NCBI GenBank assembly: GCA_949358305.1
Contig: OX442314.1
Location: forward strand, 5,208,001 to 5,272,000
From: Strigamia acuminata
Taxonomy: Eukaryota
DNA: 64,000 nt
Reading direction: 5' to 3'
Shown: positions 18,136 to 57,809 of the stretch, one piece after another
Numbering within the stretch: the stretch's first letter is position 1
How the letters are laid out: each line of letters begins with the position of its first letter
The notes under the pieces: generated by a model
What the model was told of the DNA's origin: nothing
The model's database searches: none
Seen by the model: the letters and a program-made list of their open reading frames with translations, nothing else
Position numbers and translations under genes: made by a program

Positions 18136-19025
18136 AAGTGTTGTGCGCGGTACACCCAACGTGGACCGCCGTACAAGTATGCAGTACATCGGTAGATGCT
18201 AAAAGTATCGCGTTCCCGGTAGGCGGTACCTAGAGCGGTCCCGATACGCGGTATATCGTGTACCGCGTACCGGGACAGAGATTTGGCAGTACATGTCGCG
18301 GTCCACGAGAAAACGCGAGAGAACATGATAATCTCGTGTTTTGTCACGCTCTCCACTATCTATTTAAAAATTATTTTTAAATTACATTTCTTTTATTTGC
18401 AGGAATTTAAAGTCTATATTTATCGGTTAATTTATGTTTTGTAGTTGTAAAAGGTTAAATTAATAATAAATAATCTCTGTAGTTTAGTTTATACTGTTTT
18501 TTTAATTTTTGTGTCTTTGAATTAAATTAGGCCAGTGTGTTACCAGTAATAACACACTTTATAGTGCAAATTAATGTCCTAATCCAAATCAATCAACTAC
18601 ACTATGAATTAAAATTAATAAAATACACTTATTTCGGTTAAACTGACATTATTTATTATTAAATTTAACTTTTTACAACTACAAAACATAAAATAACTGA
18701 TTATACACTTTAAATTCTTGCAATAAAAGAAATGTAATTAAAAAACAATTTTTTAAATTGGTATTGGAGAATAAAAGAAAACACCGAGGATTTCGTGTTT
18801 TCTGGCGTTTTAACGTCGACCGAGAGATTTACGCAAAATCAGTCCGCGTTACACGGATTTTTAAAAGTAACGCGGTCCCGGTGCGCGGTACTGTCCTCCT
18901 GTCCTGTACTTACAAAAGTACCCTGGTCCTGGTAATCACCTGCCACAAAAGTAACGCAATCCCGGTCTCGGTATAGTACCGATATAGTACCGGCGGTTCT
19001 GGACTGCGTACCGCACACAACACTG
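18136..19025. mobile_element. hAT-like MITE (890 bp) with long internal inverted arms, inserted into the 17-bp minisatellite
   Basis: TIRs (a)agtgttgtgcgcggtac / gtaccgcacacaacactg; 8-bp flanks aacatcta / aacatctc (7/8 TSD); 18370-18470 is inversely repeated at 18650-18750. Confidence 0.85.
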
Positions 19026-31596: not shown

Positions 31597-32020
31597 CTCT
31601 GGTTCGACTCAAGAGGGTGTCCTTCTCCCATTGGCCGAGCCGCATTACTCCTACCACAAGTTTAATATTACTACCATTAGGAGAAGTAGTTTTTATTTTT
31701 ATTATCATTTGTGATTGCTATAACCATCTAGGTTAATATAATTTCGATTAATTGTATCCATAAATGTTACTTCCTTTGAAGAAATTAAGTTATATGAACA
31801 TATAAATCAAAAACTCATTTTTGTTCTGTTTATCGTTTTTTTGGTCTGGACCGAACACAATTTTTGAATTATTTATTGGATGCTTTTTCTGGAATAACGA
31901 TTACAAAATGTCTGCACATTGGAATTTCTGGTGTTTGGGTCTACATTTTTGGATCACTACATACACCAGTGATACGGCTCGGCCTATGGGAGAAGGGCCC
32001 CCTCTTGAGTCGAACCAGAG
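31597..32020. mobile_element. MITE (424 bp) with imperfect TIRs of about 50 bp
   Basis: ctctggttcgactcaagagggtgtccttctcccattggccgagccg is inverted relative to cggctcggcctatgggagaagggccccctcttgagtcgaaccagag; TA follows the right end; a related fragment lies near 36960-37000. Confidence 0.85.
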
Positions 32021-39735: not shown

Positions 39736-40718
39736 TGTAATGAGCCTGGATTATTGCTATCAAATTAATAACAGCAACAATTCTCTAAACTCATTAATGC
39801 TTAGACAAGACTTATCATAAAAATACTCTCTTTAAACTAAACTTCTTTATTCTAACTTAGAATAAGGTAAATTACAGTGATAAATAAGGCTTAATGGAAA
39901 TAAGAAATAAAATAATAGATGAAATGATGAAATAACTTCCAATCGACGTGGAAACGTTATCTTGACGATTCCAACGTTCTGGCGACGATTTCGGCTCGTT
40001 TCGTCGCGCTTCTACGGCTCTCTCCTCGACGCTCTTCTCGATATTCTCACTCACGGCGTCGCTCCCCGGTGAAACGGACTTATTCCGTGACTCAAACTCT
40101 CGAATTCCCTGGAAATCGTCTGATGCGAATCGACTCACGCCGACTCGCTTGGTCAACCGGACTCTTTCCGTATCGTCTACTACACGTTCTCCGCAACTCC
40201 GTCGTCGTGGCGGCGAAACTGCGACTCTTTCGCACAACAATCTCTTCTCAACAATGTCGTTGAGACAAGATGAAATCTCACAATTGTATTCGTACAATTG
40301 CAAGAATGGACTCTAGCTGGATCCCTCTCAGCAAGAGTGTGGCTTCCCGTGTCACTAGTTGTGGTGGCACAAGATGAATCTAGCTGGATTCTTCACAGCA
40401 AGATTATGAGTATAAAACTTCACTGAGGTTTTCACAAAATACTGGAGGGTTTCTCTGGGTTATTTTGTGTTGTTTCTCTGGCAAAGTTTGTGATCATACT
40501 GAGGAGTTCTCACTCCTCTCAGGACTCATTTCCTGTTTGGAGGCTTGTGGGCTGGTTACCCTGGCAACCACCCACATTTCCTCCCACTCTGTTCAGCTTT
40601 CTTGCCTGTAGACAGGAAGCATAAAAAATACAAAACTTCGACTTAAAATATAATAAATCAAAATATTATTTTACAGACTTTTTCTGTTGCTTCACTAGTG
40701 ACCACTAGGGTCACTACA
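39736..40718 (-). repeat. 3' LTR (983 bp)
   Basis: Matches 53832-54814 except at 39749 (g vs a) and 39975 (c vs t) by eye; AATAAA on the minus strand at 39851-39846. Confidence 0.98.
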
Positions 40719-40732
40719 CCTCCCTCCTTTTT
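40719..40732 (-). promoter_or_regulatory. Polypurine tract (AAAAAGGAGGGAGG)
   Basis: Pure purine run abutting the TG of the 3' LTR on the minus strand. Confidence 0.95.
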
Positions 40733-40764: not shown

Positions 40765-43700
40765 CTACTCATCATTTCTGGACTCAAAGCTTGGACCTGG
40801 AATCTCGGATTCGGACACCGAAAATCGGGGCATGCCTTTCATGGGTCCAGATACTGCTCCATTATTTACATGAAACCATACTTCTTTAATGTGTTTCGTG
40901 CGTGGCCAAACTCGATCATAGTCCACGTCATATCTTTCCCGATTCCCTGTAGGTGCCCTTCGAACCGCAATGAGTCTTTGATGACGCACAATTCGTTGAG
41001 GCTCTCTCGACGAGTTTTCGAGCCACTTCAAAGCATCCCGACACAAGGTAGTGCTGTAAATCAACATTGTGCGGGTGGCGTCGGAGACTCTCAGTTTCGG
41101 GTACAGGTATCGAATCCTCCCGAAGTCCATGTTTTTGCTTCGTCTCATTCCAGTTTTTAATGGCTCTTTTGCTTTGGCAAGGCCACGACGCGATCCGTCA
41201 GTTTCTTTCGATGAGGAGTCGTCGCTTCGTCTGGACACTCCCTGCTCGGTGTTGGACTCTACACCGGACTTATTACTTGATTCTGCCCTTTCTAATGCCA
41301 TTCGATGAGCTGTAGGCGTGAACGTGGCTGATGGGGCCTTTTGTGTCGGAACTCGAAATTGCGGAGTTGGTTGCGACATCGCCAAAAATGTTAATGGACT
41401 TAATTCCATGGCTTCCTGAGTTTGGGGTTCGGGTGTCCAGTCAGGTAATGCCTGTGTCGAGAAATCTCGAAATCTCTGCTGGGCTGCCAGATTCGTGCGA
41501 TATTGGAGCCATTCTGCTCTCAGTCTTTGTGCGCTTTGAGATGGAGTTTCCCCACTTCTCAGGATCTCTCGAACCAATTCTGCTCGTAATTTTGGCGGAC
41601 TTCCCAATAGATTTTTCCAATTTCTTAACATCTCTCGTGGAATCCCCATCGGCTCTGTCCATACGAAACTTACCGCAATCAAAGTTGTTTCGTCAGTTGG
41701 GAATACCCCCGGAAACAAGAGTCTTATCAGTATTTTCCGAGCGAACGGCTTACAGTGCTCCAACCATTCGTCTGTCTGTGCTTCGAGGGGCTGTTGCACA
41801 AACTCGAGCGCAAGCTGTTTCATTTCTGCCAATGTCACTTGTAGTTGGACTTGCTGAAATTCATCCAAGTTAGGGGTCAACAGTCCTTGTGAGCTCATTG
41901 GAAATTTAATATACATTCCTCATAATGGCTCATAGTTTTTGTCATAATTCTCGTCTGGTTGCAGTGGAATGTTACCTTGCACAGTTGCAATGGCTGGTCT
42001 TGGCAATGTAAATTCAGTGTACGGACTAATTTCCGTTTGCGGCAACAAGTGTGGGTCCCTCTCGTTCATCACTTTAGCTTCACGAGGCTTCGCCTTCCTT
42101 GGGTCTCTCATTCGATGTGCTGGCCGCAATATCCTTTTCGGGCCTTGTCGTTTCGGCACTTGATTTTTCGATTTTTCCAACGCCTCTTCCAACGTCATTT
42201 TCTCCTGAATGATGGCAAATTTTGGAGGGGAAACTCTTTTCCGCGTTCTCTCTTCACGACGCTCATTTGGCGTTTCTTCCAAAGTGTGTTTTGATGGTTC
42301 CACATACTCGGGAAAACTCTCAAAAGTCAAGTCTTCTGGAGATGAGGCTCTGGGCGTCGGCGTCGTTGGCACGGATGTTGGGGTCCAGGTAATTGGTGAG
42401 TTACTCCCCTTTGATGGAGCTGTTTGAGGATGAGGAGTCTCTTGTTGTGGCGGAGTTTCCGGACGTGGTGGAGTTTCCTGACGTGGTGGAGTCTCCTGGC
42501 GTGGTGGAGTTCTAGGTCCCTTTGTTCTCTCCTCAGGCCTTTCTGCCTCACTCGACGTAGACTCTCGACATTCATCCATGACTACGTAATCTTCATCCCA
42601 CTTTTCATCTGCGGTGTGGAATGATGACGCCGATGACGAATCACTGTCTTGTGTGATTCGTACTCGAATCCCATCCTTTTTGCTCCTCAAAACTTCCCTT
42701 TTTGGACGCATCTTAGAATATCGATGACTGCTCACTGGACGTGGTTTGGAGTGCGACCTCTTTTCTGTCGAACTATTGCTTGTCTGTCGTCGATTTTCTG
42801 TTAACTGACGTTTTTTGTTTATCGGACTCAATTCCGGACTTCGACTGTCTCTTCTACGAGAAGAGGAAACATATTTTACTTTACGCCGCTCCGACGAGTG
42901 ACTTTGATGCTCCCTTGTTTCTTGTCGCATTCTTTCGTCTCGTTCAAGGGGTCTTGTTTCCCTACTTCGGTTTCTCGACGTACTTTGCTTCGGTGGAGTT
43001 TCTTTCCTCCGTCTGTCGCTTCCTCTGTACCGAAGTGCTCCTCGGGTCCTTGCTTCCCTTCCTCTTCGAGCTAACTCATGTTGTTCAGATCGGAATTCAT
43101 CGTAGTTTCTATCTCTAGAATGGTGACTTCTCGATGAATGATGAGGTTTCGGACTTAATTCCGATTTTTGTTGACTTCTGGACGCTGATCGACTTCTCGG
43201 ATGGCGTGCGGATGTTGTAGATCTTTCTGACCTCTCTGGCGGAGTCTTCTCTCGCTGCACCATACTTCGTGGTCGTCTTGACGAATACTCCACTTTTCGA
43301 GTTGTCTGGGGCGGTGTCTTTCTTCGACGCTCTGGACTTGGCTCCTGATCGGCCTGAGATCTTTTATCTCTACGCTCTTTTTCCTCCTTCTCTAGTCGTT
43401 GCCTTTTTACGTAATAGAGAGGTCCAAAGTCATCTCGCAACTCTGGTTTTTCCTTTGACACTGGAGTGATGTGGACACCAAGTACCCCTGCCATCGTCAA
43501 TTGATGCATTTTATATTGAGAGTCCACGTAATAGGGTGGTACAGTTTCCAAATCTGGTTCGTCCAGCAATGCCTGCTCCGCCTGCCATTTCGCCTTCTTC
43601 TCCAAATACTCGGCTGCCACATCCGCCATGCCCTCCTGAAGTCGATTCATTACTTGCCGTGCAAATTGGATTCGATTTGTCGCCGGGTCGCAATAGATGA

Positions 43701-44007
43701 CATAATCCTCCGCCTCCTCTGGAGTCATTGGGAAATCTTCACCTATTAATTCGTTCCAGATTGGTCCGTGTGTGTCCGTTAATATTGAAATTAATCGCAA
43801 CATTTCGTGGAAACACGTTTTGAAACCCTTGAATAGTCTCTTCAGGGTTCCCCAGCGTCGTTGCATGGCTAATGAGATGAATTGTCTGACGTTGGCTGGT
43901 TTGTAGCCTCTCCGCTCGAATATTCTTCTCAACTTTCGATGGATTCTTCCCCGATAGAAGGTTCGTGGGACTCTCGCGTTTTTGGGTAATGCGTCCCATG
44001 ACTCCAT
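40765..44007 (-). CDS. ORF3, unknown accessory protein of about 1080 codons (695 aa + TGA + Gly + 383 aa in one frame); Arg/Ser-rich, not Env-like
   Basis: The junction reads tta TGA gga ATG (41925-41914), so the two listed ORFs share a frame. It ends at TAG just before the PPT. No signal peptide or transmembrane stretch is visible. Confidence 0.85.
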
Positions 44008-44721
44008 TGCTTTCCTTGTCTATAAATTAAATTTCATTAATTTCTCATCTTTTACTAAATTATCCTCAATTGCGTGTGTCATTTTCTTAATTTTTACGTT
44101 TCATAAAATTCTCGCCAGATGGCGCTCTTTCGTATATCGCGACGTATTTTCATGTCGCTTTTCTCAAGTTTTTGCCAATTTTTACTAATTTTGTCACATA
44201 AAACTAATTATTTCTGATAGTTTTAACTTAGTTTTAGCCTTCTTAGCGATATTCCATGCTTATCTCGATCTTTTATCAGTTTTGTGATCGTGTCTCCGTA
44301 TTTACGACTTATTTCGCTTCGTCCCTTACAATCATCGATAAATTTTTACTTTTATGACACGCACAATTGATGAATAATTATAACTATTATTTTGGATCTC
44401 TTATCCTTAGTTTTCTCGACTTAATTCGATTTTTTACTACCTCTTCGTGTACTGGTTTCTTCGGTTTTGGCGGCGGTCGAAAATCTTGATTCATCGTGGT
44501 GTTGATGATTGTTCCGTCCGGACTTCCTTGTAAATCCTGTTATTTGTTCGATTGATGCTTGATCTATATTCCTTCAGCGTTTTTGTTGTTGTTTTGAAGA
44601 AGTCTTCACACATGTGATTTTGCTCCACGTTACATCAACATGTGGTTCGTTCGACCAATCACAATCGAGCTGCGACGTCGTCCACTTCCGGACTCCCGAG
44701 TGACGTCGCTACCTTCTATTT

Positions 44722-47700
44722 TTAGAGGTAGTCTGGAGGTTTAATCCTCCCTCTGTCTCGAAGTGGATATTTCTTCAAGACAGCTTTCTTTTTAATTGTT
44801 TTGGGTTGATTTTCGCGCAGATCTTTATATCTTTGTTTTGCTTTCACTTTTTTCACCACTTCTCCCCCCTTTTTAGGAAACGACGCAACTTGTTCGTCTG
44901 TTTCTACAACTAAATTTTCCGGAAAAAGTGGCGTTTCTTTCTGTGATTTTTTCTGCAAAGTTGCGCTTAAATCTTCATTAATTTCTTCACTTTGTTCGAC
45001 TTGCTGACCGCTTGGAATTGTAGATTCCCTTTCCTCATTATTTTCCGTGTCTGATGAACTTGGTGTTGTTTGTAATCCTTGTTGTTCTTGCGAAATTTGC
45101 GAATCTTGCAAATTTTGTGTTTGATCCAAAATTTGTGATTCCTCTGAATTTCCTTGATTTTGCGAATCGTCTAAATTTTGCATTTGACGCAAAGTTTGAG
45201 ATTCTATTGAATTACTGCCTCGTATTTGTTCATTCTGCACGTTTTGCGAACTCTCCATATTTGCAATTTCTTGCATTTCGGATGTTGATGGCTCGTCGAA
45301 CAACGTGTTAATAATTTTTCCTTCCGGGTTACTTTGTGTTTGGCCTTTTTCCCAAATTTCTTGATTAAATTCCGGGAAAAACGGCGTTAACTCGGACATG
45401 TGAATGGAACGTAAGATCTTATTATCTTTAAGTCGTCTTAATTTGACAGCTCCGCCCTGGTGGACTTTAATAATAACATATGGCCCACTTCTTTTGTCGG
45501 ATAATTTCGCAGAAATTCCCTGCGACGCTTTTGACAAAGTGTGATCTTCTTTCCATACGAGGTCATTTGTTCGAAAATCTTGGAATTTCCCATCTAATTT
45601 ATGGTTGTCCACACGCTCACGAAGGTCCATGATGTGTGCCATCATATGATGGTACGTGTCGCGAATGACCTTCTCCAATCGTTGGATGTAAATGTGCGGC
45701 TTATTTGGGTCAATTTTCAAAATTCCATCCAAAATTCGAGGATCCCACGGTATCCTGAATTCTCTGCAACAATTCAAGTATGCTGGCGAGTAATCTCGGC
45801 CTGTTGTTGCTGTTGTGCGTATACTAAACGCTATCTCTCTTAGATATTCGTCCCAGCGTTTGTGGATCGATGTGTAAATTGACAAAATATATTTCAGGTC
45901 TCTGTTGGTTCTTTCCACTGTGTTGGCTTGGGGATGATATGGTGATGTAAATCGCGGCACAATTTTGAACTTTTTACAAAATTCATGATAAAGTCGTGCT
46001 TTAAATTGCGGTCCGTTATCCGATATAATCCGGAGCGGAAATCCCCAGCCCATGCATGTGTCATACAAACAGTCCGCTATATCTTGTGCCACCGGGTCTG
46101 CCAGTGGATAAAGTTCTGGCCAACGAGTGGCTATATCCAAAATCACCAAGATATAGTTATTTCCTGTTTCCGTTCTAGTTAACGGTCCTACTAAATCGAT
46201 ACTCAAACATTCAAATGGCGCATATGGGCCGATTTGAGCTGGTTCCACTCGTGTTTTTGTTCTGGGTTTGCATGCTTGGCAGCGAGAGCAATGTTTAATA
46301 AATCGAGCTGTATCTCGTTTCATCCCTTCCCACGTATACACTTGTCGCATACGATAAAGTGTTCGTGCTATTCCGCAGTGGCTCGCCAAAGGATGTCCGT
46401 GCATTTGCCACAGAACTCTAAATCTTAATGATCTCGGCACTACAATTTTAAGTGCTCTCGAATCCTCTGTCAAATCATCCGACATTGTTGGGTGATATTT
46501 GAGTAAAAGGTTTTCCTCTACAATGTGTTTCGTTGCCAAGATGCGATATTTTTTCCTATGCAACGGAGTTTTCACGTATGTGGGAAATTGCTCAGTCTCA
46601 AGATAATGTCGCATGGCCTGACAGTGGCGGTCTTTGATTTGGTGATCAACGAGCTCTTCTCGTGTCGGCGGTGTGCAGTTCGCCTGTTCCGTCACTTTTG
46701 CAATAAATGCCGTGACCATCTCGTTTTCGGAAGTTGGCATGTACTGCCATTCTTTCTTTTCTTTTGGACTTGTTTCCATCTCTTCACTAGGCGCACTATA
46801 CACCTGACACCAATATGATGCAACTTCTTTGTCTACAGTCAATGGTCGTGGCAATTGATTCCAATTCCCCACCACCCATTTGCGTGGCTCAGTTGGACAA
46901 TATCTCAGATCGCCGTCGGCTTCTCCTGTGTCCTCCGCGTCGCAAATTATCTGAATTGGTGCCCTGGACAATGCGTCTGCCAAAGTGTTGGTTGTCCCTT
47001 TCAAATACTGAATTTGGAAATTGTAAGACATTAATTCCATCTGCCAACGGGCAAGACGGCCTGCTGGCTCTTCCAGTCTCATCAACCATTTCAGCGCCTC
47101 ATGGTCAGTTTGTACGACGAAGCTCGTAAACTCGAGGTACGGTCTAAATTTTTGTAGTGCTCATATGACGGCTAAACACTCGAGGTCGGTGGCGCTATAA
47201 TTGAGTTCTGCCTGCTGCAGACATCGGCTGATGTAAACGCATGGCGATTCTATCATCTGTCCGTCAATTTCCTTCATCTGCATTAAAGCGGCGCCCAAAC
47301 CCTTTTTGCTTGCATCTGTTCTTACGATGAAAGATTGATGTAAATTCGGCAAGTGCATTGTCTTTGCATCAGTCAATAACTTTTTTATTTCATCAAATGC
47401 AACTTGGTGCTCATTTTCCCATAGGAACTCTATTCCTTTCTTCAACAGTGGGCGTAGTGGTGCCGCTACAGTTGCCAAATCTTTCAGAAGGCGGTGGAAA
47501 AAGTTGACCATTCCGAGGAATCTCTGGAGCTCAGTCAAATTCTTTGGCGCTGGAAATTCCGAGATTGCCGCTACTTTCGCGGGGTCTACACTTAATCCAT
47601 TAATTCCTAATTTATATCCTAGGAATTTGAGTTCTTTTCTGCAGAATTTGGACTTGGTCGGATTCACATGTAATCCGGCTTGCTGTAGTTTTCCCAATAC

Positions 47701-49776
47701 TGAGTCCAAGTGCTTCATATGCTCAGCATATGTCTTTGATACGATCACTATATCGTCCAGGTAGGCCCAAGCATATTTCCTGAATGCTTCGCCTAATACC
47801 TTTTCAATCAATCGCTGAAACGTTGTCGGCGCGTTGACCAGCCCGAAGGGCATGACATTGAACATTAAACGGCCCATGGGGCTCCAGAAAGCCGTTTTTG
47901 GGCGATCTTCCGGTCTCAAATCTATCTGCCAATAGCCCTTTGTTAAGTCAATGGTCGACACCCATTGGAATTCTCCTAATTCTCTTAAGATTTCCGTAAT
48001 GGTCGGCATTTGTGGTGGGTCATAAAGGGTGTGTTCGTTTAGCGCTCTGTAATCGATACAGAGGCGTGGCTCCGAACCTGGTCTCATTACCAGTACGATT
48101 CGCGTTGCGTAATCCCCTTCAGCTTCCGATACATAGCCTTTGTCGATCATCTCCTGGCAGAGGGTCCTTAAAATTTCGCGCTTCTGTGGGTTCCATGATT
48201 TAAATGGAACTCGGATCGGTTTATCCGTGTCTAAGTTTATCGTGTGTTGGAGCACGTGTGTTTTTCCAGGATTCTTGCTGAGTATCTTCTCATATTTTCT
48301 CAGCACATGCTCCAATTGTGCTGCCTCTGTTAACTGCAGTTTAGCTTCTTCGATCATGTCATGGACTCCATTTCCAACCTTCAACCTTGCCTCGAATGCA
48401 CAAAAGCTACTTTCTTTTCTAAATGTCTTCAAAGACGATTCAGGCTCTTCTTTCTTTTGCTCATATTTATCAAGAAGATACTGTGGCATGTAAGGTTGCG
48501 GCACATCGATTGTCGTGATGAAATTCCATTTGCCGTTGAGTGGATTCGGCTGTATTTTCATCCTTTTCATCGCGTCGTTGCCGATTAACATGAACTTCAT
48601 GTCGTGAGGCAACACGAGAAAATATTGCTGCATCATCCCATGAGTCCATCTGATCATCATTCTTATTGTCCCCATAGGTTGGACCTTTTTGTTCGCTGTA
48701 TTTATAGTCATGTTGGCTTTGAGGGGCCAAACTTGTTTCTCCAATCCCATCGCTTGAATCAGTGGCCAAGAAATGCAACTGCGGTTGGCGCCAGAATCCA
48801 ACATCGCGGCGATCGAACCTTGTTCTGTCTTGATGTCAATGGTCGTCATTCCCTCTAAAACATCTTCTTCAGGGAGTAAAATGTTAAAGACTCTAATTCT
48901 TGGTCCTTCTGGCTCCAAAGTTGTTAGTTCCTTTAGGAGTGGGTCCCAGTCCACTGGTTCAACCGATGTATCAGTCATCCAAGCCGCTATTGATGGAGTT
49001 TCTTCATAGGTCTTTTTTACCTTTGTCCAAAAAGTAGTCGCCTCATTTTCTTGTACCAATTTTACATCTTTTAATGCTTCGGTCACTTTGACTGTGAAAT
49101 ATGATTTGTCAAATTCATTTGACCGGTAAGCTTCTTGTATTACAGACGGGCAATCTTTTATTTCTAAAGGTGGGAATCTCATTCCAACGAGTTGTCCACA
49201 CTCCATGTCGCAAATCATTTCCCCTCTTTTGGGCATCGTGCCGATTGCTTCTGGTGGCGTAAGTATTACAGGAATAGTTGTATTTTTTAGCGGTCCATTA
49301 TCGTATAAATTATCTGGTTTTGATGAACACCCGGCTACTTCCGGTTTTGGTTCCGTTGTTGCTTTTGGAGCTGGAAATTTTATTCCCACAACTTCACCAT
49401 CTTCGAAATCAACAACTATTGTTCCTCTTCCACCTTCCAAAGTTCCAATTACTTTGCGTGGTTTTTCAATCAATTCCGATTGCACATATTCTCCAGTTTT
49501 GCTATCCTTGATGAACCGTGATCCTGAAGGTGCTTTTGCTGTTGGTTGAGTCTCTTGGATGTCTTCAGTCAGATCTTGTGACTCCACCGATGTTTTTAAT
49601 ATTAATGAAGTCTCTATTACTTTTTCATCTATTGATTGGGTCTCCGATAACCCTTCTGAATTCTCCACTACTTCCACGGATAGAGCTGTTGTTGGTTGGG
49701 CATCTTGCAGTTTTTCCGAATTTTTTGTCAGCGCGAGCTCTACTGCTTTTCCTGAGCCCGCGCGTTCAAGTTTTTT
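44722..49776 (-). CDS. pol: Pol polyprotein (protease, RT, RNase H, integrase with GPY/F motif), -1 frame relative to gag, one in-frame TGA at 47163-47161
   Basis: LDSGA (~48797), IDLTKGYWQI, MPFGLVNAP, YLDD (47763-47752), TDAS, ECLAVI*ALQKFRPYL...TDH, H-H-C-C zinc finger, DLVGP / SDNGPQF / VER catalytic DDE, and SGPY. Confidence 0.97.
49731..49776 (-). promoter_or_regulatory. Programmed -1 ribosomal frameshift signal
   Basis: A AAA AAC in the gag frame (49776-49770), a 6-nt spacer, then a 10-bp stem gcgcgggctc / gagctcgcgc (one G-U pair) with a 13-nt loop; the pol frame is open from 49797. Confidence 0.88.
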
Positions 49777-52700
49777 GTAAGGTTGTCGGATAAAGAATTA
49801 ATGAGATGTTCCATTTCTTCTTTAGACAACATTCTCTTTGGCTGTTGACATTGCCGTACTCAGTGTCCAACTTGGCCACAATTATGGCACGGTGCATTCT
49901 CCGGTGTCAATTTTACTTGACTGGTCTTATTACCATCTGCTGCGCCGCCTGGCGTAGAAGTCTGTCCTTTATTTTCACTTAATTGTGGAGTTTGTACTTC
50001 TAATTTTGAGTTGAAGTCGACAGAGTACGGTTTGGTCGGAAAGGACGAATTTCCTTGTGTCTGTGGCTGCACAACCATTTGATGTGGCAATCTTGTTTGC
50101 ATTTGCGGCTTGTATTTTGTTATCGCTGGATTGTTCCGTGTAAATAATACGCTTGCCGCATCCATCAAAGTGTTTAATTCATTTTCCGAGTAGTCTGTCA
50201 ACATTATTTGTGTATCACCGACTGATTCGGTTGCTTCGGACGGGTCTTGTACCCATTTGACCGTTGGTCGCGTTGGCACTCGTGGCTGTGGATAAGGTGA
50301 TGGTCCACTTTCTTGTTTTTTGGTGGACCCTTCCTCCCGAGATAATAAAAATTGCGAGCGTGGGCGCATCATTTTTGCACCGGATCTAGTGTAGTCTGAG
50401 TGGTGTCGCTGCAGGTCATCCCGTGCTCTTTGCTCTTCCAGCGGGAGGTCTGATGCATATCTGTCATCAATATACATTTGATTGTTCCTTATAAATTCTT
50501 GTAATTTCTCGAAAGAGCTGGCCATTGGTGCATCCACCATTCTTAATACCTTCTCGGAAAAGGGTGTCAGACCATTTCTGAATTTTCTATCTTCGTCGAA
50601 ATCGCTGATGTGATACGGGAGCTGAGCAATTAGATCTTCTGTTCGTCTTAAGTAAGACCGAATGTCTTCGCCCAACATTTGTTTGTGGTTGTCCCAATAC
50701 TTTATCATCATTGCATTGGACTCCCCGTATTCTTTCATAAATGCTTTTACAAATTCATTCCAATGCGTGAATTTATTTTTTCGGAACCAATTTGTTGCTC
50801 CACCAACCAACATTTTTGGTATCAACTTGTGTAAAGCCACATCTGGGTCCATTTCGTGACTTGTCACTACGTGCATCACTTCATCTAAGAACTGGGTTCC
50901 GATTTGCCATCCTCCGTCGAACATGTCCGGATTAATGCGGTCCCACTTGATTTGGTGTGGTGAGTTGTAGTAATGTGTCCAATTATCAGTACAATATTTC
51001 AGAATAAGCTTCCTTAAAACTTCCTCCATTTCCTGAGACTTCGAAGGAATTTGTGACAATTTTGAATCAATCTGTCTCGCGATGATTTCTTCTAATTCTC
51101 TGGAACTAGTTGGTAATGTGTTTGATGGGGGCGGATCTCTGTTATCCGAACGGGATTTCCCTCTATCCCATCTCTCACCTTGTGGCCTTGAGTAGCTATA
51201 CTCTTCTCTCCTTCCTCCTTGATGTCTGGAGAAATTGGGTTCTTCACGACGAAATTGCTCAGAATGTGAGTATTTTCTCTCACATTCGTGTTGTGATGGT
51301 GGTGGACTAGAACGTGACCTTCGTTGGTCTCGGTATGAGTCGTCTCGTCGCCTATCGGAATCTTCATGTCGTCTGCGTGACTCATCACGTTGCTCATGTG
51401 AATCTCTATTCGTATAGGATTCGTACCAATAGGAGCCTCCGTCTCGGCGCGATTCCCTTTGGTTATCACTTTGTTGACGTGGGTCGCTTCTGCTCATCGA
51501 CTCATTTCGATTGTAACAGCTTTGTCCAGTCGGACCGTAGTCACTTTGTTGACGAGTCTCGTCTCTGAAGCGGGCGTCACTTTGCTGGCGTGGTTCGTCT
51601 TGATAACACGATACATTTCGCATATCTGTATCATTATGCGCTTGCGTTTCATTTGCAAATCGTACTTCACTGCGCGAACGGGCTTCTTGACGATTGTACG
51701 ACTCATTTCGTAAATTGACATCTCGTCCTACATGTGGGTTTGGTCCAACATATCTGCCGTCTTTTGAACGAGAAGTATCTCGATTACACGACTCATTTCG
51801 TGGATTCATGTTTTCAGGTTGCTGTGAATATTTGCCCTGTAGATAGTCGTCATAATTTCTAATTTTTGTGTAACTGGCTTGTCCAGTTGCTCCATCTTGT
51901 CCGGTTGCAGCATCTTGACTATTGCTTTTATCTTGCTCCGGAACTTCTTGATCATGTTGGAATTTTTGTTTTTCACTTTCGCGACCCATTTCGCGTTGAC
52001 TATCCACTTGTTGTTTCATCTGTGTTTCCCGCAATCTTCGCCGATCCTCTCTTTCATTGGCTTCGGCTACCTGTTCAACCGCTTCCATGAACGTGTATGA
52101 CCTTCGATGGGCGGGGTTCTCATCGTCTCGAGCGTCTTCAAGATACTCTCCCAAAGCTTTGCCTCCACATGCGCCTTTTGTTGCAGGATTACTGACATTT
52201 TCAGTCTCTAATGGAGTTTTGCGGTCTCTGTCTTCAGAATCCATTTTTCTGCGTGCTGTCTGCCATTTTTGAAATTCGTCCGGATCCACTCCTGTTACTG
52301 CACCTTGTTTTTTAATTGGTCCAGCAGGTTGGTCCGTTGCACGCTGACGATTTCTCTGTGCAATCACGTCCAGCACGTCTGGATTTTTTGCTGGTGAAAC
52401 CGATGCTCTTTTAGCATCTCTTCTTTCATCCACCTCACCTCTCCTTTTTAAAGGATTCGCGGATGCGCCTGGAGATAGATTGACTACTTCTGGGCGATAG
52501 GATGGAACTCTCGTCGGTCGCTCGTAATTGCATTGTGCAATATACTTAATTTCATCCAATTCTCTCCGGACTCTCTCCGTTTCTTCTTGAGCTTCGAAAG
52601 CTGCTTGACGAAAATGATGAATATCTCTTTTCTCCGACTCGTCCATCGCCTTCTGTTTTGCAATTAATGCCAATCGTTCCGTCTCCACGCGGACTTTCTC

Positions 52701-53705
52701 CGCTTCAATTCTCTGCCTTTCGGCTTGGATCGCTGCTCGATCGGCCGCTACTTCCGCTAGCCGTTTCTCCTGCGAGTCTCGATACTCGTTCGCCATACGT
52801 ATTTTTTCTTGCTCGACACGTTGATTTTCGGCACGTATCGCATCTCGATTCGCTAATTCTTGCGCTTTACGTCTATCACGTAATTCTTGCCGTTCTGTTG
52901 CTAGGCGGATTCTTTCAGCTTCCATTCTGTCTTTCTCCGCTTGCATTTCTCTGTCCAATTGGTCTTTTTTGGCACGAATTTCTGCGTCTACTCGGTCTTG
53001 TTTGGCGCAGATCTCCGCTTCTGTCGCTTGTTTGGCCAATTCTGCTTCATACTTCGCCTGGCGTGCTTGGTGTTCCTCCATTTTTAGACGTCTCACCATC
53101 TCGTACTCTTCCAAATGGAAATCCTGTAGCTGCCGGGTGCTGGCTTTCATCGCATCCGTGATTTTCGCAACGTCTTCATCGGAAAGTGTAACGCCTTCTG
53201 CGTACTGACGCTGTCGCTCTGCCAATCGATCTGCATTTTCCTGCATGAGGTCGGCGATGCGCTGGCGTACTCGCGACAACTTATGTCGGGTCGGGGAATT
53301 TTCGCCCGAATTTTCCGCGTCGTCTTTCGCTCTCTGTTTAGCCGCGTTGTGATAACGTTTTATCAACTTCCCTCGTTTGTGAGCGACTGCAATCACTTGT
53401 TCCAATGACATGTTCGTTAAATCAATCTTACTGCTTGGAGTTGATGGCACACTGGGCGAAGTTTTGTCGACTGGCGAGTTGACACAGGGCTCTTCCCTTT
53501 GAGTTTCTGGTGACGTTTCTAACCAAAAATCTTGACCGGTTAGCCGGTGCTGTTCGGGGTCTTGATCCGATTCTTTTTCCGGACTGGATGATGAATCGAA
53601 ATACGGCTCCGCTGCTCTGCCGATCGCTCCTCCGGCCGTACCGCCTCTTGTGCGGACTCCACGTCTCGTTCCTCTCCCTCTCCTCGAATCTTGTGGCAAC
53701 GACAT
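49740..53705 (-). CDS. gag: Gag, 1321 codons, with one in-frame TGA (49862-49860) inside the CCHC zinc knuckle
   Basis: Capsid-like FDGG...LVGGATNWF...WNEFVKAFMKEY...QMLGEDIRSY; CHNCGQVGH*VRQC; the frame continues to TAG at 49742-49740. Confidence 0.93.
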
Positions 53706-53818: not shown

Positions 53819-53829
53819 ACGGGCCCCCA
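53819..53829 (-). promoter_or_regulatory. Primer-binding site, tRNA-Pro-like (TGGGGGCCCGT)
   Basis: Lies 2 nt downstream of the 5' LTR; 10/11 match to the standard tRNA-Pro PBS TGGGGGCTCGT. Confidence 0.8.
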
Positions 53830-53831
53830 GG

Positions 53832-54814
53832 TGTAATGAGCCTGAATTATTGCTATCAAATTAATAACAGCAACAATTCTCTAAACTCATTAATGCTTAG
53901 ACAAGACTTATCATAAAAATACTCTCTTTAAACTAAACTTCTTTATTCTAACTTAGAATAAGGTAAATTACAGTGATAAATAAGGCTTAATGGAAATAAG
54001 AAATAAAATAATAGATGAAATGATGAAATAACTTCCAATCGACGTGGAAACGTTATCTTGACGATTCCAATGTTCTGGCGACGATTTCGGCTCGTTTCGT
54101 CGCGCTTCTACGGCTCTCTCCTCGACGCTCTTCTCGATATTCTCACTCACGGCGTCGCTCCCCGGTGAAACGGACTTATTCCGTGACTCAAACTCTCGAA
54201 TTCCCTGGAAATCGTCTGATGCGAATCGACTCACGCCGACTCGCTTGGTCAACCGGACTCTTTCCGTATCGTCTACTACACGTTCTCCGCAACTCCGTCG
54301 TCGTGGCGGCGAAACTGCGACTCTTTCGCACAACAATCTCTTCTCAACAATGTCGTTGAGACAAGATGAAATCTCACAATTGTATTCGTACAATTGCAAG
54401 AATGGACTCTAGCTGGATCCCTCTCAGCAAGAGTGTGGCTTCCCGTGTCACTAGTTGTGGTGGCACAAGATGAATCTAGCTGGATTCTTCACAGCAAGAT
54501 TATGAGTATAAAACTTCACTGAGGTTTTCACAAAATACTGGAGGGTTTCTCTGGGTTATTTTGTGTTGTTTCTCTGGCAAAGTTTGTGATCATACTGAGG
54601 AGTTCTCACTCCTCTCAGGACTCATTTCCTGTTTGGAGGCTTGTGGGCTGGTTACCCTGGCAACCACCCACATTTCCTCCCACTCTGTTCAGCTTTCTTG
54701 CCTGTAGACAGGAAGCATAAAAAATACAAAACTTCGACTTAAAATATAATAAATCAAAATATTATTTTACAGACTTTTTCTGTTGCTTCACTAGTGACCA
54801 CTAGGGTCACTACA
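53832..54814 (-). repeat. 5' LTR (983 bp)
   Basis: Direct repeat of 39736-40718, followed on the minus strand by the PBS and gag. Confidence 0.98.
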
Positions 54815-55122
54815 ATATTTAAGCACCCTTGGATAAAAACATTAGATGCTCCTCTGTCAGAAGACGGTGATCTTCCGGCTTATGGTGCCCTTTGCAGCAC
54901 TCGGCTTCCCTAGACTACAGCCCTTTTATAGCCGAAAGGTTAAGGTGGCCATACCCGGGTGCAAGGAGCTGCCAAGAGACACTATTGGTGCGGCAGTAAC
55001 TATGTCTAATATTGTGCCATTCAACCCTATCTTCTTCCTACAGGTCACCCAGTCCACTTCCAGGATCGGCAGCTTCCCTAGTGTCAACAGGGAATCATTG
55101 GTTAGTGTGCAGGACTGAACTG

Positions 55123-55503
55123 AGAACAAATTTAGTATCAGAAAATCAGGATACGTCGGGCCATGGAAACAAATTTTGTACCGGAAAATCTGGATACGTC
55201 GGGCCATGGGAACAAATTTAGTACCGGAAAATCTGGATATGTCGGGCCATGGGAACAAATTTAGTACCGGAAAATCTGGATCCGTCGGGCCATGGAAACA
55301 AATTTTGTACCGGAAAATCTGGATACGTCGGGCCATGGGAACAAATTTAGTACCGGAAAATCTGGATATGTCGGGCCATGGGAACAAATTTAGTACCGGA
55401 AAATCTGGATCCGTCGGGCCATGGGAACAAATTTTGTACCGGAAAATCTGGATGCGTCGGGCTCGGGCCATGGGAACAAATTTAGTACCGGAAAATCTGG
55501 ATA
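55123..55503. repeat. 43-bp minisatellite, about 9 copies
   Basis: gggccatgggaacaaatttagtaccggaaaatctggatacgtc; variants recur with a 3-unit period. Confidence 0.95.
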
Positions 55504-57809
55504 GGATTGACCACGACAAAAGGACGGGCCACCGGGGAATTCCCGGAATCCAGCCGGGCCAGTGTTAGTATCCTGCCGGGCCAGTCCAGCACTGTTAGTG
55601 TGATCATAGCTGTACTGCATGCCAAACAACACTACGAAGAGCTGCATGTGACACAACTATTATATACCAATCTTCTCCATTCATTCCCACAGATTTCCTT
55701 TATTTTAGGAAAGTGAACATTCCCTTTAATGTCAAGCTGCAACACATACAAATAGATGGCTTTGCTTCCAATCTATTGATCAAGAATGGGGGAAGGAAAA
55801 AAAGAGAGAAAGCCCAACACTATCATTTCCCTCGGTAAATGGCACCACTATACCTTGATGTCTTTTCAACTGTTTTCCTATTTTTCCACAAAGTTGGTCA
55901 AAAAAAATTGTTTCTTTTGACGTGATTCCTTTTTCTCCTCCTTTTACCATTTATAATTCCTCCGTTCAACGGTTTTCGATCGAGGAAAGCAATATGCTCT
56001 CCCAGCGGGATCCCTAATGACGATTTAGAGCTAAACGTATTTTGTTTCCTCGAGTTGCCACAAGGCGGCCGTTGCTAAGAGTCATCCAATCACCATGATT
56101 GATTCCCAATTCTGCCACTAGGATCTTATCACCAAGCGCCTCGAGAACACCTGGCGGCCGACTCCCGAATGTGAATAACGATCAAATAAAAGTTAATTAT
56201 TTCATTTCTCAAACGCATCAACTTTTAATTGTGCGTCGCGCACGCGCACGAAGGGGTTTCCGAGTGTGCCACTTTGGGTGTGTGTGGCACCTGACTTCTT
56301 TACGAGTCCTTATTGAGTTGTAGTCGTAAATCAAAGCTAATCTTAGCGAGGCGAATCAAAATTCATTTAATTTCGGGACCCAGCCACCCATTAAACGCCC
56401 CGCACTTATTCTTAATTTCATTGCACGACAACAAGATAAATGGCGGCGTCCAATCAAATTCATCGACTGCGGATCGTCAACGTTCCGTAACGAGAACCGG
56501 AAATTGTTTTCAACTCCGAAGAAATAAAATTAAAAAATATAAAATTAAATTTTTCTAATAATAAAAAAAAATTCCAAAAAAAGGAAAATGGATTTTATTT
56601 GTCACGAGCGTGTGTTCCAACCTTTTAAAATTTTCACTTTTTCTTTCGTTCCTCATTTATGTTCTTAATTTATGCGTGCGACCTTGTCCTATCTATTTAT
56701 TTTTATTACAATTTAGCGCGTATCTTTTTGTCACAATCGAGGATTTAAAAACCGAACGTTGTTACATATTTATTTATTTATTTTTTATTTATTATTTCTT
56801 TTATTTTTTTTTATTTTTTATTTATTATTTCTTTTATTTTTTTTTATTTTTTTTTATTATTTCTTTTATTTTTTTTTATTTTTTATTTATTATTTATTTT
56901 ATTTTTTTTTTATTTTTTTTTTAATTTTTAATTTAATTTTTCCTTTATTTGTTTGAATAGGAAATTACAAGATGGTTGATGGCGTTTGACAGCCGTCGTT
57001 TCTTTGTTGGGAGCGGAGGAGTATAAAGTAACGCGGGCGCACGTGAGAGGCGACGAAACGAGCGCTAGACGGCCCTCCAAATTAAGCCGCACCAAAAGGT
57101 TTTAAGTTTTATATATGCCTGGCCGTTTTCCGTGTTGTTTTTATTGCCTCTGCTATGGAAATGTTCACCACTTTGTCGTTACCAAAAAGCCTTATACCTC
57201 ACTACAGTTTTAAAATGAGATCGATTTCTTGCTTGCAAATTATTTTCCTCATTCTGCGAGCTTTGAAAAAAACGATGTCGCTAATGGCGAAACAAACAAA
57301 AAGATACGAGGATGGGTCGTTGGCTGCTTCGCCAATGATACAAAGAATACGATCGGATGATCATCAAAATCAATCACAACACATGCTAGGAAATGAGTTT
57401 GTCTTGGCAACGGACATGGCAGTCTGTAGTAACGGACATGCTCGCTCGAAGTGAATTAATTGTTAGTTGGAGCGATTTAATGTGATCTTAACCCTCTTTC
57501 GGTGAAATGAACAAGTTGTCGAGACTCTTTTCCGAAGCGCTTTAGTGTAATCAGCGCCCTCTTTCAATAAAGCAAACAAGTAATCGCGACTTTACTGATG
57601 CGTGAAGAAAGATGGCAGTCATTTGCCTGCTGACCAATCAGAATTAGAGGATTCTCAGATAAAGTTTATATTATTGCATCCGCACCTACGGGCTGATCAG
57701 TTACAGGTAAATCAATGAAATTTAAAAACTGACGTCACAATCTATCAGAAACCTGCTGCAGCAATGACACTAAATTAATTGCAACTATCGTATTTCTCCG
57801 ATTCTGCGG

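Follow-up and report, generated by a model that had tools for sequence, protein, structure and literature searches.

A large non-envelope third open reading frame under purifying selection in a young Ty3/gypsy retrotransposon of Strigamia acuminata

A Ty3/gypsy (Metaviridae) LTR retrotransposon of 15,079 bp lies on the minus strand of the analysed window (64,000 nucleotides of Strigamia acuminata, contig OX442314.1) and carries, behind pol, a third open reading frame (ORF3) of 1080 codons, which we are confident is a real, selected gene that does not encode an envelope protein (Env). Far more tentative is the role that we favor for its product, a nuclear regulator of the element's RNA comparable to Rev or to the CERV protein of the retrotransposon Cer1. 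How env-less LTR retrotransposons export their unspliced RNA and escape silencing is largely open, and CERV is the only experimentally studied case from an animal retrotransposon that our literature search found. Being young, multi-copy and naturally variable, and having a large selected orphan ORF3 with a predicted promoter, the present family would offer a second test case. The parts of the element are as follows.

53832 to 54814, minus strand: 5' LTR, 983 bp, TG...CA ends, 99.8% identical to the 3' LTR by self-BLAST
53819 to 53829, minus strand: primer-binding-site-like sequence, separated from the 5' LTR by 2 nt
49860 to 53705, minus strand: gag, 1281 codons up to an in-frame TGA, assigned with Pfam
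44722 to 49797, minus strand: pol (PR-RT-RH-IN), in a frame other than that of gag and overlapping the gag end
40719 to 40732, minus strand: 3' polypurine tract (PPT), abutting the 3' LTR
39736 to 40718, minus strand: 3' LTR, 983 bp

The element has the features by which Ty3/gypsy retrotransposons are recognized: LTR ends, a target-site duplication (ATAT, flanking both outer LTR ends), a primer-binding site, a PPT, and gag followed by PR-RT-RH-IN. The primer-binding-site-like sequence at 53819 to 53829 resembles a tRNA-Pro site. Gag matched Pfam Retrotrans_gag (E = 4e-5) and, partially, zf-CCHC; pol matched protease, RVT_1, RT_RNaseH, Integrase_H2C2 and rve. Pfam detected no chromodomain on the integrase, and nothing within the element matched Rfam. 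The two LTRs differ at 2 positions (self-BLAST within the window); the insertion is recent and the family young and multi-copy. Among the 120 RT-RH matches listed, the closest relative was 44% identical, and the named matches came from fish, sea urchins, ants, amphibians, a sponge, a tunicate, a nematode, a fungus and an alga. A FastTree phylogeny of 117 of these 120 matches (3 with short alignments were left out, and no named errantivirus was included) placed the RT on a long branch (end branch 1.07) outside any strongly supported group. Assignment to the Gmr1-type gypsy elements was rejected because the integrase does not precede the RT here and the integrase-first clade of the tree did not contain this RT. 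Searches with the integrase and RT against metagenome, viral and prokaryotic contigs found no related loci.

An earlier note on this DNA had proposed a long third ORF of about 1080 aa, in sense orientation between pol and the PPT, formed by a 695-aa and a 383-aa ORF in a single reading frame. The frame is present at 44007 to 40765 on the minus strand, in the sense of gag and pol. Its two parts do share one frame, but in this copy they are split by an in-frame TGA at codon 696, the only internal stop. The ORF3 ATG lies 714 nt past the pol stop, and the final stop (TAG) falls about 30 nt short of the PPT. The other two sense frames of this stretch contain 49 and 50 stops and the antisense frames 26-40, and stop-free runs in 500 mononucleotide shuffles reached at most 210 codons; the openness of ORF3 is thus far beyond chance. 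Being long, placed between pol and the 3' LTR and present in several copies, it is an additional ORF in the usual sense.

The stop that interrupts ORF3 is the following.

41920 to 41922, minus strand: in-frame TGA, ORF3 codon 696, absent from the bridging sister-copy contig

In this copy gag (49860-49862, inside the CCHC knuckle, after which the frame continues for 39 codons to a TAG), pol (47161-47163, in RNase H; the pol stop itself is at 44722-44724) and ORF3 are each interrupted by one in-frame TGA. Because ORF3 is split, its 1080-aa product would not be made from this insertion unless the TGA is read through. For sister copies we used the contigs of three public sequencing runs (X1, X2 and X3), all of one organism. 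A single 440-nt contig of X1 spans the ORF3 stop and differs inside that codon (depth 703 of 703, at a site 121 nt from the contig end), which indicates that sister copies are open at codon 696. X2 has a contig with the identical span and the identical difference count; both X1 and X2 contain the flank junction of this insertion without differences and may be the source of the window, so neither run gives independent support. Judged from these contigs, the ORF3 stop represents damage to this insertion or to its close relatives. Since the stop is absent from the bridging contig, an alternative code or programmed read-through, considered because all three stops are TGA, was rejected for ORF3. 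Either may still apply to gag and pol, at whose TGA codons no difference at 75% or more was listed in X1, but a difference could be concealed by the shortness of the contigs. The data do not support strand-biased hypermutation of this copy, as the two directions of purine transition are balanced (7 vs 8 sites). Three stops compare with 0.46 expected (p = 0.011; p = 0.23 at the upper bound of LTR divergence).

We classed the single-base differences listed between this copy and the sister-copy contigs codon by codon, leaving out the stop site. In ORF3, 16 of 22 differences were synonymous, compared with 33.6% expected for transitions (p = 2e-4), and the approximate dN/dS in this small, contig-derived sample was 0.19. 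Fifteen of the 22 came from the complete X1 list, which by itself gave 9/15 synonymous (p = 0.03), and 7 from 40 of 1456 rows. By the same classing, gag had 16/23 and pol 11/13 synonymous differences. Within ORF3 the two end regions had 12/12 (7/7 in residues 1-215 plus 5/5), whereas the middle had 4/10 (Fisher p = 0.003) and is not detectably constrained; in residues 697-855 all 4 listed differences were synonymous. No indel at 75% or more was found in 41800-44007 among X1 contigs. Gapless contigs 86-89% alike span 41386-41797 in X1, X2 and X3, and two similarly diverged contigs over 42538-43341 contained 2 gaps each. A dN/dS near 1 with frequent frameshifts, which the earlier note had named as evidence against its own proposal, is therefore not what these copies show. 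We concluded that ORF3 is under purifying selection, concentrated in the two end regions, and that the protein is functional in the family, with constraint on its ordered parts.

The 3' half of ORF3 was thinly covered in the same runs. Relative to pol, summed contig depth over 41051-42601 was 0.07 (X1), 0.10 (X2) and 0.25 (X3); relative to the flank-junction contig, X1 depth was ∼7x for 3' ORF3, ∼31-54x for 5' ORF3 and ∼84x for pol, and these figures are depth, not copy number. Depth falls near 42600. Three X1 contigs match the element up to 40738, beside the PPT, and then run on unlike the window. No deletion joint spanning the ORF3 3' half was present among 15 of the 34 joints listed. These contig data hint that the ORF3 3' half is diverged or different in many members of the family, and this half appears more variable among them than pol.

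The ORF3 product can be divided into the regions below, with a linker between the last two.

43363 to 44007, minus strand: residues 1-215, predicted mostly helical, with a basic start (net +15 in residues 1-70)
42643 to 43362, minus strand: residues 216-455, Arg/Ser-rich, net +41, by composition and motif scan
41923 to 42642, minus strand: residues 456-695, acidic/Ser patch, TPPRQE repeats, and a Pro/Thr-rich and basic linker
41443 to 41919, minus strand: residues 697-855, helical block predicted by AlphaFold2 (AF2) with low confidence
40765 to 41127, minus strand: residues 961-1080, basic and aromatic, with short predicted strands, followed by the TAG

The motifs quoted in the earlier description (RSRSASRS, TPPRQE, LAEMKQLALEF...RLRAEWLQYR and FGRIRYLYPKL...KEVWFHV) were all found. 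That description called the middle Arg/Ser/His-rich, which is right for Arg (23% of residues 216-455) and Ser (17%) but not for His (just 4%); several basic clusters that resemble an NLS also lie in this region, together with S/T-P sites. TPPRQE is encoded by a tandem array at 42434-42510 with a unit of 18 bp, present in 4.3 copies. The helical and C-terminal end blocks both exist; they do not adjoin, however, and are separated by a Ser/Pro/Thr-rich linker of 105 residues (856-960). Over its whole length the product has a net charge of +54, 5 Cys, 11 basic clusters and 29 S/T-P sites, and the motif scan found NLS-like and NES-like patterns. The hydropathy maximum (Kyte-Doolittle, all 19-residue windows) is 1.13, and in line with the earlier claim no signal peptide or transmembrane (TM) helix is indicated by hydropathy. 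The lack of a hydrophobic segment, the few Cys and the high positive charge bear out the view that the protein is not Env-like, and its composition suits the nuclear, nucleic-acid-binding character that had been suggested for it.

Proteins of the SR family combine an RRM with a domain of RS dipeptide repeats. ORF3 shares with SR and SR-related factors an Arg/Ser-rich, basic, disordered tract and many S/T-P sites; unlike them, it has no RRM and no long RS dipeptide run, and its dipeptides are near expectation (22 RS/SR in residues 216-455 vs ∼19 expected from the Arg and Ser content). Gag residues 600-900 contain an Arg/Ser/Asp-rich stretch that resembles the one in ORF3; tracts of this kind may therefore be a general trait of the lineage. 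The idea of an RS-type factor in the sense of a protein family is not upheld by these observations.

No family was recognized for ORF3, in agreement with the earlier note, and neither an Env nor a captured host gene, either of which that note had said would overturn its reading, was matched in the databases searched. Six ORF3 segments compared with Pfam (E up to 10), and ORF3 segments compared with NCBIfam and PDB sequences, gave no family, and no Pfam family matched ORF3 at E below 0.2; the low-complexity middle (216-695) was scanned against Pfam and NCBIfam only. Residues 1-215 had no homologue among proteins of 594-1890 aa (840 candidates) or of 30-593 aa (509 candidates), and the 384-aa 3' part gave 0 matches in 1.84 billion representatives. 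Metagenome, viral and prokaryotic contigs contained no loci related to the ORF3 parts, and the ESM Atlas gave no usable match for either part, a result that says neither absence nor novelty. The sole low E-value, to a designed helical repeat protein, came from 4-5 bits per stretch and was rejected. A captured enzyme of the DEDDy or GDSL type was rejected for want of a match in Pfam or NCBIfam, and ORF3 had no Pfam match to F-type, gB-type or gp41-type fusogens. AF2 run without an alignment gave mean pLDDT values of 37.1 and 48.8 (the latter for residues 1-215), and Foldseek with these poor models returned nothing at E up to 0.001, a blank that carries little information at such model quality. 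By eye, some stretches resembled capsid/SCAN helices and a chromodomain. This likeness was rejected after profile tests in which the best score was 1.4 bits and the hhalign probability at most 1.1%. The capsid, SCAN and chromodomain profiles were built from Pol matches (13, 3 and 4 sequences, respectively); the capsid profile scored the element's own Gag at 38.2 bits and 94.5%, and the SCAN and chromodomain profiles, both shallow, lacked a positive control. The chromatin tether offered in the earlier note thus drew no support from a shallow chromodomain profile without a positive control. As even Pol has no close relative in the databases searched, these blanks point to an unsampled lineage and are no proof of new folds; the ORF3 blocks are possibly new domain families.

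Expression of ORF3 may depend on the following sites between pol and its ATG.

44601 to 44710, minus strand: promoter-like cluster by motif scan, candidate internal promoter or enhancer
44020 to 44035, minus strand: splice-acceptor-like site 12 nt before the ORF3 ATG, from sequence only

The cluster lies directly behind the pol stop and consists of two CRE-like motifs, ETS, CCAAT and E-boxes (44616-44708). Nowhere else in the element do 4 of the 7 motif classes fall within 100 bp, a number reached in 0 of 500 spacer shuffles, the motif set having been picked after seeing the sequence. ETS and CTCF-like motifs are common across the window, and the CTCF-like motif occurs 9 times vs 0.19 expected; this frequency and the named RT-RH matches would point to an animal host. 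The spacer from the pol stop to the ORF3 ATG contains 12 upstream ATGs, which makes simple scanning to the ORF3 start unlikely; together with the acceptor-like site they make a spliced or internally started ORF3 mRNA likely. A scan for strong splice donors picked up a single one in the entire element, located within ORF3, and none in the leader or spacer. Shielding of unspliced RNA in the manner of Rev would then be less needed.

A protein that is strongly basic, partly disordered and non-membrane, with conserved helical blocks, S/T-P sites and an mRNA of its own, would best fit a nuclear RNA regulator. A separate ORF3 mRNA would start at a promoter just past the pol stop or result from splicing at the acceptor-like site, and the basic clusters would import the protein into the nucleus. 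There the Arg/Ser-rich middle could bind RNA and form condensates, proline-directed phosphorylation at the S/T-P repeats could switch this region, and the helical blocks could oligomerize or dock a host export or chromatin factor, so that the product would bind the element's RNA and aid its making or export. The apparently greater variation of the 3' half is what a host-facing module would be expected to show. This mechanism is drawn from composition and analogy, and the RS dipeptides at expectation, the missing RRM, the similar tract in Gag, the middle without detectable constraint and the few strong donors speak against it.

We weighed several other roles for a basic nuclear protein. ORF3 could be an anti-silencing or transactivating factor that binds to the DNA or chromatin of the element, or to a component of the host's piRNA or heterochromatin system, and maintains LTR activity, with the variable 3' half facing the host. 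The basic helical N-terminus and nuclear-type signals agree with such a factor, as does the thin coverage of 3' ORF3 relative to pol, which would fit faster divergence, and an LTR-independent promoter would allow expression while the LTR is silent. There is also one PxDLS-like motif at residue 557, which we take to be a corepressor motif. Short motifs arise by chance, however, the motif scan found no PxVxL or LxCxE, and no chromodomain signal was obtained; moreover, contig depth is not copy number, and close copies show no excess of amino-acid change. We consider this role unlikely, though the most credible of the alternatives. A co-factor of integration, which would bring the pre-integration complex into the nucleus or tether it to chromatin in place of an integrase chromodomain, is very unlikely: the undetected chromodomain of the integrase and the NLS-like clusters favor it, but no reader domain was matched and a separately expressed protein would have to enter the particle by a path of its own. 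A further point in its favor is a second copy of the PPT region:

44862 to 44879, minus strand: second PPT-region copy inside the 3' end of the integrase region, matching at 17 of 18 nt

When up to 3 mismatches are allowed, the window contains 2 PPT-region matches, of which one is the PPT, where 0.07 would be expected by chance. The copy may be a candidate central PPT, or a relic of an older element end that predates the gain of ORF3. A central PPT has been described for Ty1, EVADE and HIV, and the feature is linked to nuclear import in other elements (PMC7197481).

Such a relic could mark an older element end behind which ORF3 was inserted as a captured host gene or as a passenger without a role for the element; alternatively, there would be two genes of 695 and ∼380 aa rather than one. 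The Met codons after the internal stop and the drop of depth near 42600 are further points for this group of readings. Purifying selection on either side of the stop and the bridging contig without the stop argue against both versions, as do, for a host gene, the empty searches with the 3' part (1.84 billion representatives) and with the N-terminal part (840 and 509 candidates), and we leave them a slim chance. Outside the nucleus, the product might act as a scaffold for RNA packaging or particle assembly that condenses with Gag and genomic RNA, or serve fusogen-free movement of particles between cells. Its highly basic disordered middle resembles an RNA binder of the nucleocapsid type, Gag has a similar tract, and the gene occupies the env position. 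Against this, the capsid and SCAN profiles were silent on all blocks (capsid profile on the element's own Gag: 38 bits, 94.5%) and hydropathy indicates no membrane segment or signal peptide, which makes such a scaffold decidedly unlikely. In favor of a highly diverged Env or other fusogen are the location of the gene behind pol and, as for spliced env, the acceptor-like site ahead of its ATG, yet the protein has no signal peptide, fusion peptide or anchor by hydropathy, 5 Cys in 1080 residues, more than 40% low-complexity basic sequence and no Pfam family at the threshold given above. The Env reading is effectively refuted by the sequence, and we give it almost no credence.

Carried further, the nuclear-regulator reading would make the element a member of a deep, unsampled animal gypsy lineage in which env was replaced by a self-promoted nuclear regulator of 1080 residues. 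Up to three undescribed domains would make up this protein, its N-terminal half being conserved and its C-terminal half exchangeable and turned toward the host. With an accessory regulator, an internal promoter and a central PPT, the element would be a 'complex retrotransposon' that acquired lentivirus-like extras independently. We regard this larger picture as doubtful.

Non-env third ORFs are a published class (PMC5408684; PMC11963269), and the value of the present case is that of a lead rather than a result. Our literature search, which largely covered the main texts of freely available papers, found no description of such a protein. ORF3s of the bdelloid elements Juno and Vesta are non-env, typically form separate spliced transcription units, and encode a DEDDy exonuclease, a GDSL esterase, or coiled-coil or TM proteins (PMC5408684). 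Among the additional ORFs (aORFs) of plant elements, e.g., Retand TRP28, those of Retand are antisense, and the protein of Grande is nuclear (PMC11963269). Like both groups, the ORF3 described here is a family-specific, non-envelope extra ORF between pol and the 3' LTR; it is in sense, comprises ∼1080 codons, is nearly half low-complexity and matches no family. The best functional model is CERV of Caenorhabditis elegans Cer1, an orphan nuclear protein needed for export of the genomic RNA and switched by phosphorylation at a site that its authors ascribe to a presumptive proline-directed kinase (PMC10309623). Both are large orphan proteins, and CERV has an NLS and three structured domains joined by flexible linkers. 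CERV has 517 aa, exons partly shared with gag, a Cys finger and a G-protein-like domain (PMC10309623), whereas ORF3 shares no gag exons, has no Cys finger and sits behind pol; no sequence or fold link between the two was found. In the Oikopleura elements Tor3b and Tor4b the third gene is driven by an internal promoter located either within pol or in the post-pol spacer (PMC4402516), but it encodes a transmembrane Env glycoprotein, whereas ORF3 is non-Env and its promoter is predicted from motifs. The hallmarks of Env, i.e., signal peptide, fusion peptide, Cys framework and TM anchor (PMC5408684), are absent from ORF3. ORF3 resembles errantivirus env in lying behind pol and in having an acceptor-like site ahead of its start (PMC13524379).

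The Ty3/gypsy element copy, whose LTRs differ at only 2/983 sites, carries three in-frame stops on the minus strand.

49860-49862 (-), in-frame stop in gag
47161-47163 (-), in-frame stop in pol
41920-41922 (-), in-frame stop in ORF3, the third gene between pol and the PPT

All three internal stops share one codon and an identical following base, and the normal termini of the gag, pol and ORF3 frames are the two other stop codons. Compared with expectation, three internal stops represent a mild excess (p 0.01-0.23).

The gag frame (49863-53705, minus strand) is unusually long at >1280 codons. The N-terminal region of its product is long, charged and coiled-coil-like, and the capsid domain is preceded by a tract rich in Arg, Ser and Asp. 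BLAST comparison of Gag (E 0.01) with the 120 listed database matches to the element's RT-RH gave no match. In the pol frame at 47164-49797 (-), ∼310 residues ahead of the protease had no significant Pfam match. At the other end of Pol, the integrase tail is Gln/Ser/Glu-rich over ∼200 residues. The end of the integrase coding region also contains a near-duplicate of the 3' PPT region (44862-44879, minus strand; 17/18 nt identical), which is a candidate central PPT or relic end.

A CTCF-like motif precedes the ORF3 ATG by ∼105 nt.

44112-44125 (+), CTCF-like motif

Over the whole window, 9 CTCF-like matches were observed vs 0.19 expected, and 7 ETS 8-mers vs 0.93 expected.

Two overlapping stop-free frames in the LTR, both within a CpG-rich stretch, probably arose by chance.

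39872-40312 (-), stop-free frame, 146 codons
39966-40316 (+), stop-free frame, 116 codons

Many further minisatellites flank the element besides a 43-bp array; two short elements bounded by inverted repeats are MITE-like.

55039-55548, 43-bp tandem array, ∼9 copies, ∼230 bp beyond the 5' LTR
31597-32020, inverted-repeat-bounded element, 53-nt arms, 91% complementary
18363-18756, inverted-repeat-bounded element, nested arms of 40-48 nt
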